64,000 bases of DNA from a virus (IMGVR_UViG_3300006339_000005:62587-126586), one strand, 5' to 3'. Shown: positions 48,340 to 54,381, numbered from the stretch's first letter. Made by a program: numbers and translations. Notes: generated by a model from the sequence alone, not told the origin.

Positions 48340-48435
48340 AAAGAAGAACAAGATACGTTTCGAACAACGTCGAAAAAAGCACTTTCAACCACTAAGATAC
48401 CGCTTTTGCAGAACTTTGCTAAATACTACTTTAGT

Positions 48436-48708
48436 ATGCCGAGCGAACTCTTAAATACTAAAAACACTTCCAAAACAACTCATACCATTACCAATTCAAA
48501 TTTTAAAGACGTAGAACTAGTCAAACTCATGACCGACGCCTTACGTAATTACACTCGTTATAGAGTTCGTGTGGAGGGCTGGTCTAAAGAGTACAGCAGG
48601 CATTTTGAATCAGATATCAAAACTATTGAACATTGGAACACATTAGACTTTAACTATGATCCACTGTACAATACATTTGTTTTTACGCACAGGAGGAAAA
48701 AACAATGA
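48436..48708 (+). CDS. Hypothetical protein
   Basis: TAAATA at 48420-48425; ATGA-coupled to the aaRS-like gene. Confidence 0.55.
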   Translation: MPSELLNTKNTSKTTHTITNSNFKDVELVKLMTDALRNYTRYRVRVEGWSKEYSRHFESDIKTIEHWNTLDFNYDPLYNTFVFTHRRKKQ

Positions 48709-49556
48709 CCCAACTTATCAATCCGGAGCACTTTACCGAAACTGTCGGCCTATTAAGGTCGTTTTTTTTGGATAGGGGATTTCAAGAAGTACACACACAA
48801 AACAGATTAAGCATACTGGCGGCTTGTGAAGATCCAACCACAGTAAGCACTTATAATTACGCCGGCAATGTTTGGCCGTTACCACAGACAGGCCAAATGT
48901 GGCTAGAATACGAACTACTTACACGCCCCTCTTCGAAGGGGTTTTTTTGTGTCTCCACTTCCTACAGACAGGAACCAAACCCAATTGAAGGACGACACGA
49001 TCTAATATTTCCGATGTTTGAGTTTGAGTTTCCTGGTACAATCACGGAGCTGGAGAATATGGAAAAGGAGCTTATAGCACACATGGGTTATGGAACTCAA
49101 GATGAAGTAATTGCTAAAGACTATAGCAAATGGGCAGAAGAATTTGGAGTAGAAGAACTAACTCATACTGAAGAAGAGCTTATGCATAAACAGTGGCAAG
49201 GCAGAGTATGTATGATTAAAAACTTTCCAAACCACACTAGTCCATTTTGGAATATGAAACAAAACGGAGACGGAACTGCCGCTAAGATAGATGTTATTAT
49301 ATCAGGACAAGAAACAATAGGATCAGCTGAACGAAGTAGTGATCCGGATGAAATGTGGCATCAGTTTCATACAATAAGTGAAGGAATGTATGCAGAATTA
49401 TTGTTTGGACAGTTTGGTAAAGAACGTGTAGAAAAAGAATTAAAAGACTTTTTAGCCCATGACTTTATACCTAGAGTAGGCGGAGGTATTGGTTTAACTA
49501 GATTAATTCGTGCAAACGAAGATTATAAAGCTAGGGGATTACACGCTCATATGTAA
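48705..49556 (+). CDS. Class IIb (Asp/Asn) aminoacyl-tRNA synthetase paralog, catalytic domain only
   Basis: Motif 2 SYRQE..RH..FPMFEFE, ETIGSAER, motif 3 GGGIGLTRL; 283 aa, no N-terminal anticodon-binding OB fold. Confidence 0.88.
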   Translation: MTQLINPEHFTETVGLLRSFFLDRGFQEVHTQNRLSILAACEDPTTVSTYNYAGNVWPLPQTGQMWLEYELLTRPSSKGFFCVSTSYRQEPNPIEGRHDLIFPMFEFEFPGTITELENMEKELIAHMGYGTQDEVIAKDYSKWAEEFGVEELTHTEEELMHKQWQGRVCMIKNFPNHTSPFWNMKQNGDGTAAKIDVIISGQETIGSAERSSDPDEMWHQFHTISEGMYAELLFGQFGKERVEKELKDFLAHDFIPRVGGGIGLTRLIRANEDYKARGLHAHM

Positions 49557-49561
49557 GACGA

Positions 49562-49648
49562 TCCGGGGTGGTGGAAACGGTAGACACGATAGCCTGTTTA
49601 GCTATTGCTTGGGAGAGCGTGGAGGTTCGAATCCTCCCCCCGGAGCCA
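49562..49648 (+). tRNA. Atypical tRNA, anticodon GTT (Asn) on a class II long-variable-arm body, encoded CCA
   Basis: Acceptor TCCGGGG/CCCCGGA, D arm GTG..CAC, anticodon stem ATAGC/GCTAT with loop CTGTTTA, variable arm GCTT-GGGA-GAGC, T arm GGAGG-TTCGAAT-CCTCC, G73-CCA. Confidence 0.9.
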
Positions 49649-51507: not shown

Positions 51508-52119
51508 TTAATTATCGCTTGACTTATAGTCTTTATCGACCACACACATAACCATATGAATTCTATCTGCTTCACTGCCGTTAAATTGTGAATGATAAAA
51601 ACGTGTATCAGTAAACCAGCAAGTTCCCGTTTTCATATGATGTACTTCGTCTTCGATAATCATTTTTGATCCAATTAAGGTTCTAACAGGAACGTGTATC
51701 CTTGGCTCTGGATCACGATGCCAGGATAAAGCCCTTCGTGGCATAGAACGTACTAAACGTACCCGTCCTATTTTCCAGTCCTCAGAAATTGTTTCGTATA
51801 CTTGTTTAAAATATGTATGAGCAAACTCGGGAATAAATTTTGTGTACTCGCTTTCGCATATATCTTGTAAGCGACTTACTTCTTTGCCTTCAGCATCAAA
51901 CGTATCATAATGCCCGCCTTCGCCTCCATGATACTCGTGTTCTTCATTTTCTTTTTCTGTTAAGCAAATCTGTGGAGAGTAAATATCATTCTTGCCAAAC
52001 TTGTTTACATTTCCTCCGGACATCTTATCGCCCCAAGGACAAATCTGCAATACATCATGTAGCCCTTCTTCTAGCTTTTCGTTATCAAACTCATATGTTA
52101 ATTTTTTAAAGTACTTCAT
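51508..52119 (-). CDS. Aspartyl/asparaginyl beta-hydroxylase-like 2OG oxygenase/cupin
   Basis: SWHRD..RIHVP..DTRFYHSQFNGSEADRIHMV; start refined to 52119 behind GGAGG. Confidence 0.75.
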   Translation of the reverse strand: MKYFKKLTYEFDNEKLEEGLHDVLQICPWGDKMSGGNVNKFGKNDIYSPQICLTEKENEEHEYHGGEGGHYDTFDAEGKEVSRLQDICESEYTKFIPEFAHTYFKQVYETISEDWKIGRVRLVRSMPRRALSWHRDPEPRIHVPVRTLIGSKMIIEDEVHHMKTGTCWFTDTRFYHSQFNGSEADRIHMVMCVVDKDYKSSDN

Positions 52120-52387
52120 TACCAACACCCTCCTCGTATTGCACATAGGAATAACATCTTTGCTTTAACATGAAATGGAGCCACTTCAGCACAACCCATG
52201 TTTATATTATAGAACCATACTCCACCTATAGTTGCACTTACAATAAAGAATCCTATAGTTACTTTCCAAAATGTTGTCATTGTATTAAACTCAGTATAAC
52301 GAAAGTACTAATAATAAACACTATGTATCCAACTGTTACTAGTATTCTTTCTTTAGTTTTTGACTTAAAAAGATAATGATGTTCCAT

Positions 52388-53518
52388 CTATCTATTCATT
52401 ATAAACATACTTCCAAACTTTGTATTAACCGCGTCACTTAGATTAACGTCCTCTTGTTTATAATACCCTTCTTTGTTAAGTTTATCTTGTAAAAATAATT
52501 CAACCATTGTTAACATTCCTGATGCAGTAGTTAATTCTATTGCTGTATAATATCTATCATTATATGTTTCTGGATAAAATACTTTCTTGTATATACGTTC
52601 CTTATGCTTACCATTTATCCTACCACCAGCTGTAATAAACAAAATTACAACATCACGTCTTGTAGTTGACACACCTCTTTTAATAATTTCAATTAACTCT
52701 TTATTAGGAATTCTTAAATCATTTATTAAGAAATCTATAAGGTTATGATGTCCTTTACGGCGTATAGTTTTATAATTTATATTTGAATGCGTAAAGCGTT
52801 CATCATCTAAGTCAGCTATAGTTCTTGCAAACGTACCTAAGCCTCCACTCGTATTAAATGCTTCATACGTATCACCGCCAATCATTAATGTTTCATATCC
52901 TGTAAGAGTAGGCACTTCATAATATTTGCCATCTCTAATAATTGCACAATCGCCACAATACTCATTTACTAAACCATCAGCACTCCATGACAAATGATAC
53001 TTTAACTTATTAGTTGCATCTTGTGATAATGCTCCAACACGTATCTTAATATGATCAACTGGATCCATATCATGCATTAAGTTGTTTGCAATAACTGTAC
53101 TCATACCAGGAGCAAGTCCACAATGCGGCATTGTAAATTGGATGCCTGTTCTAGTTTCAGAAACATACTTACGATCTCTTATCCAATTATCTAATTCAGC
53201 ATCTTCTGAGAAATCAAAGTACGGAATATTACATTCCATACAAGCATTATGAATAACCATATTTTCTGTATATGGTAGAGCATTAATTATAAGTGTAAAG
53301 TCACAAACGAAATCCTGTAGTATTGAGTTGTTTGCTCCAGGATGTCTAGTATCTATTTGCTTGTAATCTTCTTCAGCAAATGCTCCCGAACGAGTAGCAT
53401 TATATGGCGTCATATCCGCTACTGTAACGCTGTAGTTTGTACGATCTTTTAAAAGATGATATACTGCACTACCTATTGCTCCTGCTCCGAATATTCCTAT
53501 TTTAACTTGATCAGACAT
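52388..53518 (-). CDS. Saccharopine dehydrogenase / lysine 6-dehydrogenase family protein
   Basis: GAGAIG Rossmann, NALPY, CGLAPG, RVGAL, WSADGLVNEY, EAFNTSGG, YKTIR. Confidence 0.9.
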   Translation of the reverse strand: MSDQVKIGIFGAGAIGSAVYHLLKDRTNYSVTVADMTPYNATRSGAFAEEDYKQIDTRHPGANNSILQDFVCDFTLIINALPYTENMVIHNACMECNIPYFDFSEDAELDNWIRDRKYVSETRTGIQFTMPHCGLAPGMSTVIANNLMHDMDPVDHIKIRVGALSQDATNKLKYHLSWSADGLVNEYCGDCAIIRDGKYYEVPTLTGYETLMIGGDTYEAFNTSGGLGTFARTIADLDDERFTHSNINYKTIRRKGHHNLIDFLINDLRIPNKELIEIIKRGVSTTRRDVVILFITAGGRINGKHKERIYKKVFYPETYNDRYYTAIELTTASGMLTMVELFLQDKLNKEGYYKQEDVNLSDAVNTKFGSMFIMNR

Positions 53519-53529
53519 AATGCTTGTAC

Positions 53530-54381
53530 TTATCTAACTTTGGATAAGAACTCCTTCACTGTATTAACAACAACAAATCTTAGATTTTTAAATTCCATTA
53601 GCCGCCTAATTACATAAGGCATCCAGTCTGCTCCATATGGTGCATACGTTCTAACATTATAACCTTCACCTATTAAGCGTTTAGCTAAATCACGCCTAAT
53701 GCCAAACAACATTTCAAAATAAAACTTCCTTTTACAACTGTATTGTTTTGCTAATTCTTTAATTCTATGTATTAAATATTCATCATGAGTTGCTAGTGAT
53801 ATTAATTCTTGCTTATAACTCTTATCATAAAAGTATCCGCTTTTAAAAAGCTCTTCTACTAATTCTAAATATGAGCTTCGTACCTTATGTTTATTATGGA
53901 TATCTCCTTTGTATGCACCTTTACAAATTCTTACTCTACGTTTACTTTCAATTACATCTGCTAAATCAGTATATGAACGTTCCATATTAGCTTGTAATAC
54001 AATACCGATATCCTTAAAGCATCGTGAAAATTTTAATGTATCATCAATTGACTCTGCTTTCTCCATATCAAATTTAATTTTAATAAACGGTATATCTTTT
54101 ACTACATTAACAATTCGTTCTACAGGTTCTTTCCAATCACTAGGTAGCTGACCGAATTGACTTAACTTAATAGATACTTCGTATTCTCTATGTGGAAGGT
54201 CAAATAACTTACTAATTAAATCTAAATATTCTTTTAAGTTTGCTTTAATTTCACAAGGTGCATAAGCACTTTCGCCTACATAATTAATAGTCACTAGATC
54301 ATATTGTCTGATATTGTATAACATTGATGCAATATCATCACCAGCAATAAATCTCTTAGCTAACGGAAATAATAATTTCAT
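53530..54381 (-). CDS. Monofunctional proline dehydrogenase
   Basis: RFIAG, SIKLSQFG, DME, GIVLQA, VRICKGAY, ATHD, EMLFGIR, YAPYG..YVIRRL. Confidence 0.92.
   Translation of the reverse strand: MKLLFPLAKRFIAGDDIASMLYNIRQYDLVTINYVGESAYAPCEIKANLKEYLDLISKLFDLPHREYEVSIKLSQFGQLPSDWKEPVERIVNVVKDIPFIKIKFDMEKAESIDDTLKFSRCFKDIGIVLQANMERSYTDLADVIESKRRVRICKGAYKGDIHNKHKVRSSYLELVEELFKSGYFYDKSYKQELISLATHDEYLIHRIKELAKQYSCKRKFYFEMLFGIRRDLAKRLIGEGYNVRTYAPYGADWMPYVIRRLMEFKNLRFVVVNTVKEFLSKVR

Follow-up and report, generated by a model that had tools for sequence, protein, structure and literature searches.

Why should a T4-like virus carry a transfer RNA (tRNA) that joins the long-armed body of a leucine (Leu) tRNA to the anticodon of asparagine (Asn), and why should this tRNA sit directly behind a gene for a synthetase-like enzyme? 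The question is raised by positions 49562-49648(+) of IMGVR_UViG_3300006339_000005:62587-126586, a 64-kb (64,000-nucleotide) window of an IMG/VR viral contig that is T4-like and 126.6 kb long; the whole of this stretch is referred to here as the window. The enzyme encoded just upstream resembles the catalytic core of asparaginyl-tRNA synthetase (AsnRS) and is called X below. Long-armed tRNAs are normally those for Leu, Ser, Tyr and Sec, and U33 together with a purine at position 37 is near-universal among tRNAs. We find that the tRNA in the window is real, under purifying selection and not decayed, and that its dependence on the enzyme is one-way: the tRNA needs X, and X often occurs without the tRNA. 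The explanation we favour, tentatively and at somewhat less than an even chance, is that the tRNA is an accessory of X, loaded by the Asn/Asp machinery of the host, and that it would carry activated asparagine to X instead of acting as a normal decoder.

The gene is the single tRNA called by ARAGORN in the window, at exactly these coordinates and as tRNA-Asn (anticodon gtt), in agreement with the preliminary description of the locus, which had been made from the sequence and had named ARAGORN among its checks. A local search places it among the tRNAs of Rfam RF00005, whose match at 49562-49645 scores 51 bits (E 5e-10), above the gathering threshold of 29, and its cloverleaf is supported by covariation; minimum-free-energy folding of the tRNA alone did not return the cloverleaf and was uninformative. 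A scan of IMG/VR yielded more than 589 related loci, of which 80 were kept. The covariation alignment comprises 34 distinct tRNAs, and the covariance model built from these 34 homologues (R1) scores the window tRNA at 102 bits (E 4e-22). The family is large in marine T4-like phages and includes the Prochlorococcus phages P-SSM2, P-SSM5 and P-SSM7, each of which carries an X homologue followed by an 85-88-nt "tRNA-Asn". In P-SSM2, with a complete genome of 252 kb, the family tRNA is the sole tRNA. The P-SSM2 record NC_006883.2 (L002) places its tRNA-Asn feature PSSM2_199 inside the coding sequence PSSM2_205, about 2 kb off the real gene (162083-162171 vs 164094-164179), which lies directly after PSSM2_198; the misplacement looks like a coordinate shift from a record update.

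Selection on the structure is evident throughout the family. Of 804 stem cells, 99.6% are in standard pairs, and double changes, one on either side, are seen for 20 of the 24 pairs, a number reached by none of 500 shuffles and compared with 4-6 such pairs when the structure is slid by 1-3 columns. All seven acceptor-stem pairs are 100% paired in the 34 sequences, with double changes in six, and the first pair is U1-A72 in 33 members and U-G in one; C2-G71 is present in 29. Invariant or nearly so are U1-A72, U8, A14, A15, G18, G19, A21, G34, U35, U36, the T loop, G73 and CCA. G73 occurs in every family member, and CCA is encoded throughout except in P-SSM2/5/7-like copies and in one copy ending CCG. 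The preliminary description had held that all stems pair and that the gene is not decayed, and had proposed compensatory conservation across homologs as a check; both are borne out by this strong covariation. It had also named a sequencing error in the anticodon loop as what would overturn its account. More than 100 independent contigs, as well as the genomes of three cultured phages, carry the same loop. Because of this recurrence and the compensatory changes, neither sequencing error nor decay applies, and, with the pairing and the R1 scores added, the chance that the gene is a misread or decaying tRNA-Leu pseudogene is negligible.

The body of the tRNA appears to be derived from tRNA-Leu. 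The best scores of R1 outside the family are those of genuine phage tRNA-Leu: the genes from huge phages reach 57-75 bits and another phage tRNA-Leu, which shares the D arm, reaches 61.8 bits, as compared with 48.7 bits for class I tRNA-Asn. The window tRNA and L064:263-348, a genuine phage tRNA-Leu, have identical D arms, and the sole, weak match of the window tRNA to E. coli in a nucleotide search is the 5' part of a tRNA-Leu gene. The Leu-type class II scaffold with its short-stemmed variable region was thus rightly recognized in the preliminary description, and the anticodon GUU, U1-A72, G73 and U37 were each read at the position given for them there (Table 1). As a bacterial tRNA-Leu the molecule has the D arm, the core and the long arm but lacks A73 and a Leu anticodon. 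As a bacterial elongator tRNA-Asn it has GUU and G73 but neither the class I variable loop of 4-5 nt nor the combination of U33 and a purine at 37.

Table 1. Features of the tRNA and of gene X in the window.
Feature	Position	Strand	Evidence
X (P0001), 283-aa class IIb AsnRS-like catalytic core, no anticodon-binding domain	48705..49556	+	
Spacer, 5 nt, from the X stop codon to tRNA position 1	49557..49561	+	sequence
Class II tRNA, 87 nt, anticodon GUU, G73 and encoded CCA	49562..49648	+	ARAGORN, RF00005, R1, covariation
Acceptor stem, 5' strand UCCGGGG, partner 49638-49644, giving U1-A72 and C2-G71	49562..49568	+	covariation, 34 sequences
D arm, tRNA-Leu type: 3-bp stem, A14 A15, G18 G19, A21	49571..49587	+	invariant columns
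Anticodon arm: 5-bp stem AUAGC/GCUAU, 7-nt loop CUGUUUA	49589..49605	+	sequence, all 5 pairs co-vary
Anticodon loop C32 U33 G34 U35 U36 U37 A38	49594-49600	+	sequence
Anticodon G34 U35 U36 (U33 = 49595, U37 = 49599)	49596-49598	+	
Variable region, 15 nt: 4-bp stem, GGGA loop, then GU	49606..49620	+	sequence; stem co-varies
T arm GGAGG-UUCGAAU-CCUCC	49621..49637	+	100% paired; double changes in 4/5 pairs
Acceptor stem, 3' strand CCCCGGA (49638-49644), G73 (49645), encoded CCA (49646-49648)	49638..49648	+	

What is conserved on this foreign body can be compared with published identity rules. Bacterial Asn identity can be transplanted to another tRNA body with the three anticodon bases and G73, and non-discriminating aspartyl-tRNA synthetase (AspRS) reads the Asn set with C36 or U36 (PMC9976931; PMC2811023). 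U1-A72 is the determinant for bacterial GatCAB, and in yeast N6-threonylcarbamoyladenosine (t6A) at position 37 serves tRNA-Asn as an antideterminant against AspRS (PMC9976931; PMC2811023). Recognition by leucyl- and seryl-tRNA synthetase (LeuRS, SerRS) is opposed by G73 in the first case (PMC9976931; PMC2811023) and by the C2-G71 pair of tRNA-Leu in the second (PMC9976931). Bacterial GatCAB also reads the D loop, where an extra base is an antideterminant, and sits near the variable loop (PMC2811023). The family has the U1-A72 of a GatCAB substrate; its Leu-type D loop and long arm differ from those of tRNA-Asn. It does not look like a SerRS substrate, given the frequent C2-G71 pair and an arm that is unconstrained down to 5 nt. 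By these identity rules, GatCAB and a full-length class IIb synthetase of the host would read the conserved set, LeuRS and SerRS would be kept off, and the loop positions 33 and 37, which serve chiefly for decoding, would have been relaxed or replaced.

The link between the tRNA and X was established from both sides. Reached from the enzyme, R1 detects the tRNA in 65 of the 80 loci, and in 60 of these 65 tRNA-bearing IMG/VR loci the spacer between the X stop codon and the tRNA is 4-11 nt. Reached from the tRNA, by searching IMG/VR with a pattern for its 5' half, 35 stretches were obtained, 30 of them with enough upstream DNA; X is directly upstream in all 30, and none has the tRNA without X. 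Other neighbours vary, being gp23 and a tRNA cluster in P-SSM7 and hypothetical genes and a lipase in P-SSM2. A nucleotide search with the X-tRNA cassette gave no match in the phage collection. The family tRNA was absent at 75 cellular loci, including all chromosomal ones (an R1-type tRNA was present in five contigs of metagenome-assembled genomes (MAGs) that resemble phage), from all giant-virus loci examined, from two complete huge-phage genomes carrying X and from about 17% of the T4-like contigs with X. These tRNA-less X loci have no degenerate tRNA just downstream of the enzyme and none elsewhere on their fragmentary contigs. Measured against a dedicated pair, the two genes are indeed co-inherited, but the enzyme is not confined to tRNA-bearing genomes.

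The constant and very short spacing behind the X stop codon would also suit a plain RNA-processing or stability element, in which the tRNA shape provides an RNase P site or protects the 3' end of the X mRNA and aminoacylation is irrelevant. Consistent with this, a terminator scan found no terminator-like site 3' of the tRNA in the window. Such an element would have no need of the invariant GUU, G73, U1-A72 and encoded CCA found across the family, and we consider this explanation very improbable. The same scan gave three sites in total against 1.3 expected, including two terminator-like hairpins with T runs inside the X coding sequence, within 250 nt of its start (48746-48771 and 48925-48952, +). 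Downstream of the tRNA, on the opposite strand, lie genes for an Asp/Asn beta-hydroxylase-like protein (51508-52146(-)), a saccharopine-dehydrogenase-like protein (52388-53518(-)) and a proline dehydrogenase (53530-54381(-)), all part of an amino-acid catabolism island. On other X-bearing phage contigs, transfer-messenger RNA genes were found within about 2 kb of the cassette (L054:993-1375, L055:992-1374 and L057:1113-1447), with the tag peptides AVNEDFALAA and ANDNQQPEMALAA.

Among about 54 distinct family members, position 37 is U in about 49 and A or G in few, and at position 33 U (33 members) is followed by A (15), C (5) and G (1), so that 21 members are non-U. On the tree of X proteins these departures are unevenly distributed. 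Clade I (24 distinct rows) has U33 in all 24, and in the clade of the window (30 rows) position 33 takes all four bases, with at least 12 changes, and the X proteins on either side of such a change are often almost identical. The tRNA of the window combines U33 with U37, and two lineages (L027, L034) combine GUC with G37. Ordinary tRNAs at the same loci, used as controls, keep U33 and a purine at 37; among them are five class I tRNA-Asn of huge phages and giant viruses with U33 and A37, and the only departures, four genes with odd calls in loci of huge phages and giant viruses, have probably been mis-registered by ARAGORN. The variable arm ranges across the family from 5 nt (L051, 78 nt in total) via the 15 nt of the window to about 38 nt (L072), so that its length appears unconstrained. 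In L051 it has shrunk to a class I-like 5-nt loop, and in one clade (L053, L060, L066, L084, L062-L072) an A/U-rich hairpin, whose core …GUACUG…CAAUAUAUUUA… recurs, extends the arm to 30-38 nt.

An altered loop on a foreign body could still belong to a decoder. In this explanation the tRNA would be charged by host AsnRS, or by AspRS and GatCAB, and would keep AAY decoding going in either of two settings, where host tRNA-Asn is cut by anticodon-arm nucleases or where free Asn is drained by X. The conserved host-enzyme identity set agrees with it. The PARIS effector AriB cleaves tRNA-Asn(GUU) by reading U36-A37-A38-U39, and T5 tRNA variants at these positions rescue infection (PMC12409363); U37 would break this context. 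The setting in which X drains Asn would moreover explain why the tRNA travels with X, whereas escape from a nuclease leaves unexplained why the tRNA is confined to the neighbourhood of X and missing from ordinary phage tRNA clusters. Furthermore, decoding should suffer from a pyrimidine at 37 and a base other than U at 33, these hosts are not known to have a PARIS-like system, and the ordinary phage tRNA-Asn in the data set keep U33 and A37. We therefore regard a replacement decoder as quite unlikely. The preliminary description had left the choice between a functional class II tRNA-Asn, possibly escaping anticodon nucleases or dependence on t6A, and a tRNA with a non-ribosomal role. Nuclease escape is possible but does not explain the linkage to X, which, together with the pyrimidine tie of X described below and the non-canonical position 33, shifts weight to a role tied to the enzyme.

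X matches Pfam tRNA-synt_2 (6.6e-14), a family of class II (D/K/N) synthetases, and phrog_29758 (3.4e-114), for which no function is known; its homologues in P-SSM2/5/7 are 60-62% identical and annotated "tRNA ligase". An AlphaFold2 model built from an alignment of 26 homologues reached a pLDDT of 83.7, compared with only 43.8 for a single-sequence run. The closest structural matches of this model are AsnRS structures (Z 26.8 for 8h53, 26.5 for 2xti and 25.5 for 1x54), next to archaeal-type AspRS (25.8), archaeal asparagine synthetase A (AS-AR; 24.1) and EpmA/GenX (22.9). X aligns only to the catalytic part of AsnRS, e.g., residues 242-529 of 8h53; it has the core with motifs 2 and 3 but not the N-terminal OB-fold domain that binds the anticodon. 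The invariant pocket motif QTGQMWLE aligns in a profile search with QSSQLYLE of AsnRS and not with QSPQLYKQ of AspRS. Motifs 2 and 3 are intact, and X from phages, cells and giant viruses does not differ in its active-site residues. A split synthetase was considered and rejected, as the 100-aa open reading frame upstream of X (48406-48708) has no Pfam or PHROG match and upstream genes differ between loci. One metagenomic homologue of 614 aa (P0132) has a homing-endonuclease module, GIY-YIG (LEM-3-like) with NUMOD3, fused to its N-terminus, which hints that homing endonucleases move or invade the X cassette.

Given this fold, X and the tRNA might form an orthogonal pair. X would then be a minimal, anticodon-blind AsnRS that charges the tRNA via its acceptor end (U1-A72, G73), and AAC/AAU decoding would be independent of the host. 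The full class IIb core with AsnRS as closest fold and an AsnRS-type pocket, the fixed unit of gene and tRNA, the conservation of GUU, CCA, the T loop and G18-G19, and the U33 kept in clade I all favour such a pair. A further point comes from the motif-2 loop (residues 91-95), which contacts the acceptor end in class II synthetases. In X without the tRNA this loop reads E-P-N-P-V-P-G-R-H, with P93 in 130 of 137 sequences; in tRNA-linked X, and only there, it is remodelled, with P93 in 21 of 72 and otherwise A or I, and with E at position 95 in 35 of 72. The remodelling, which goes back to few independent events, suggests direct contact of X with the tRNA acceptor end. On the other hand, the same active site is found in the X of cells and giant viruses without the tRNA, where X is linked to pyrD/pyrF and aspartate carbamoyltransferase is missing, and because of this the core job of X looks metabolic. 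U37 throughout the family and a free position 33 in the clade of the window make a poor design for a decoder. X is also strongly acidic (the median net charge is -19) and carries neither an extra nor an RNA-binding domain, which is weak evidence against X as an RNA-binding charger. On balance an orthogonal pair appears unlikely to us.

The metabolic side of X is most visible outside the phages. Among GTDB genomes X has 375 matches, mostly in Patescibacteria (including Saccharibacteria) and also in Dependentiae, Rickettsiales, Bacteroidota, and Alpha- and Gammaproteobacteria, some of them on megabase chromosomal contigs, and it is common in giant-virus MAGs. Fusions of dihydroorotate dehydrogenase (DHODH) with X occur in which the X part is 53-59% identical to X, and in one protein X is fused to orotidine 5'-monophosphate (OMP) decarboxylase (41% identity). 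In two Alphaproteobacteria and several Bacteroidota, X adjoins a bona fide pyrD (class 2 or 1A) with pyrF nearby. Aspartate carbamoyltransferase scores above the curated cut-off in only one of 43 X-bearing cellular genomes (G006-G050), as opposed to all 14 controls, and the genomes without it include several Bacteroidota and Alphaproteobacteria of 4-6 Mb that keep pyrD and pyrF beside X. X very probably replaces early pyrimidine steps in some lineages and is a candidate for an undescribed route to dihydroorotate. A strong DHODH is present in about 14 of the 43 genomes; with about two-thirds of the X-bearing small genomes lacking one, the idea that X supplies dihydroorotate everywhere is weakened. 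The tRNA-bearing phages checked have no DHODH or OMP decarboxylase of their own.

Two other roles for cellular X were considered and set aside. X could have been the missing AsnRS of small genomes, as canonical AsnRS is absent in four of five genomes tested; since all five have GatB, this idea is not needed, and it leaves the pyrimidine linkage unexplained. In 12 of 80 cellular loci, all of them in Patescibacteria (L113, L147 and 10 others), X is flanked by the gene for a tRNA dihydrouridine synthase (Dus) of DusB-like type immediately upstream and by dnaX downstream. At this frequency Dus does not qualify as a conserved partner, and the arrangement probably reflects lineage synteny; otherwise, it may be a second link of X to dihydropyrimidine or tRNA chemistry.

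We return to the explanation that we favour, in which the tRNA, looking like an expressed accessory of X, serves as the supplier of activated asparagine to the enzyme. A tRNA-Leu body would have been altered at three places: A73 became G73 with C2-G71 kept, which would block LeuRS and SerRS; the anticodon became GUU; and the first pair became U1-A72. The resulting set fits AsnRS (anticodon and G73) or, alternatively, non-discriminating AspRS followed by GatCAB (G34, U35, G73 and U1-A72). The tRNA would be co-transcribed with X and released by RNase P, cutting few bases past the X stop codon. A host class IIb synthetase would load it with Asn, or with Asp that is then amidated by GatCAB, and the activated asparaginyl ester would be presented to X. 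X has an AsnRS-type pocket and in cells and giant viruses would substitute for aspartate carbamoyltransferase and probably dihydroorotase, upstream of DHODH; the phage would gain a private supply of activated asparagine for a shortcut to a pyrimidine precursor. A chemistry can be conceived by our own reasoning, in which Asn-adenylate forms, CO2 carbamylates the alpha-amine, the carbamate closes on the activated carboxyl to an N-carboxyanhydride and the side-chain amide attacks the carbamate carbon to yield dihydroorotate; the asparaginyl-tRNA ester could enter the same route. Which enzyme charges the tRNA and with what, the uptake of the aminoacyl group by X and the chemistry of X are steps that we infer. 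Taken together, a supply of this kind accounts for the conserved identity set, the lost ribosome constraints, the one-way dependence and the restriction to phages of bacteria. The more specific version, in which the tRNA stands outside translation and its ester is consumed by an AsnRS-derived X that makes a pyrimidine precursor, probably dihydroorotate, from Asn and CO2, is rather doubtful. Such a step would bypass carbamoyl-phosphate synthetase, aspartate carbamoyltransferase and dihydroorotase.

Several observations weigh against a tRNA that feeds X. In phages, X keeps every ATP-site residue; because of this it can probably carry out the adenylation of its substrate by itself, and the supply of an ester already activated may be unnecessary. 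In cells and giant viruses X manages without a dedicated tRNA, and the lack of DHODH in about two-thirds of the X-bearing small genomes means that the reaction of X is not pinned down. The Leu-type D loop and the long arm might hinder GatCAB. Finally, the uniform U33 of clade I fits a decoder, and the two lineages with GUC and G37 also count against the favoured explanation.

Parts of this system have been recorded before. The tRNA-Asn annotation is already present in the P-SSM2/5/7 records, and X is listed as "tRNA ligase" (T4-GC 194) in a 2010 comparison of cyanomyoviruses (PMC3037559). In the literature, we found no paper devoted to this tRNA or to X, and none that points out the class II body, the odd positions 33 and 37, the obligate linkage to X or the pyrimidine tie of X. 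An abundant tRNA family of ocean phages breaks three rules, namely those on the long arm, U33 and a purine at 37, under clear purifying selection. If the tRNA does bring asparagine to X, very abundant marine viruses would possess a tRNA-assisted metabolic shortcut. In the version that yields a pyrimidine precursor, nucleotide biosynthesis would have its first step that depends on a tRNA, and viruses a new means of rewiring host metabolism. Should X and the tRNA instead be an orthogonal pair, they would be a natural compact synthetase/tRNA pair with uses in genetic-code engineering. Prochlorococcus NATL strains and the phages P-SSM2, P-SSM5 and P-SSM7 are available in culture.

Comparison with known systems shows where the phage tRNA and its enzyme stand apart. 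With the elongator tRNA-Asn of bacteria (class I, QUU/GUU, t6A37) the tRNA shares GUU, G73 and U1-A72, all of the published identity elements for AsnRS and for non-discriminating AspRS with GatCAB, but it has a body of class II whose D arm is of Leu type and whose long arm differs greatly in length, carries U37 instead of A or t6A, has an unfixed position 33 in half of the family and is always attached to X. With bacterial and phage tRNA-Leu it shares the D arm, a core of the A15/U48 type and the layout of the variable arm; it differs by G73 in place of A73, U1-A72 in place of G1-C72 and the Asn anticodon, and LeuRS should reject it by published rules. The phage T5 tRNAs that escape AriB are likewise phage tRNA(GUU) altered near U36-A37-A38-U39 (PMC12409363), but they keep a class I body, U33 and A37, sit in tRNA clusters and have no tie to an enzyme gene.

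Closer in logic is the non-proteogenic tRNA-Gly of Staphylococcus, the donor for peptidoglycan bridges, which is charged by the normal synthetase, has a sequence at odds with what EF-Tu and the ribosome require and is used by an enzyme that is not part of translation (PMC7826273). That tRNA is a cellular class I molecule used by Fem transferases, whereas the proposed user here is synthetase-like. PylRS and tRNA(Pyl) are similar to X and its tRNA in that an enzyme and an unusual tRNA are inherited as a unit and the tRNA never occurs without the enzyme. In contrast to PylRS, X is widespread without the tRNA, has no domain binding the anticodon or the tRNA core and is linked to pyrimidine genes, and the anticodon of its tRNA is an ordinary sense anticodon. 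As a protein, X shares the predicted class IIb fold and motifs 1-3 with the AsnRS catalytic domain, AS-AR and EpmA, and, like the latter two, has no anticodon-binding domain. Unlike all three, it forms a separate and very strongly conserved family that is linked to pyrD and pyrF and occurs in genomes without aspartate carbamoyltransferase.

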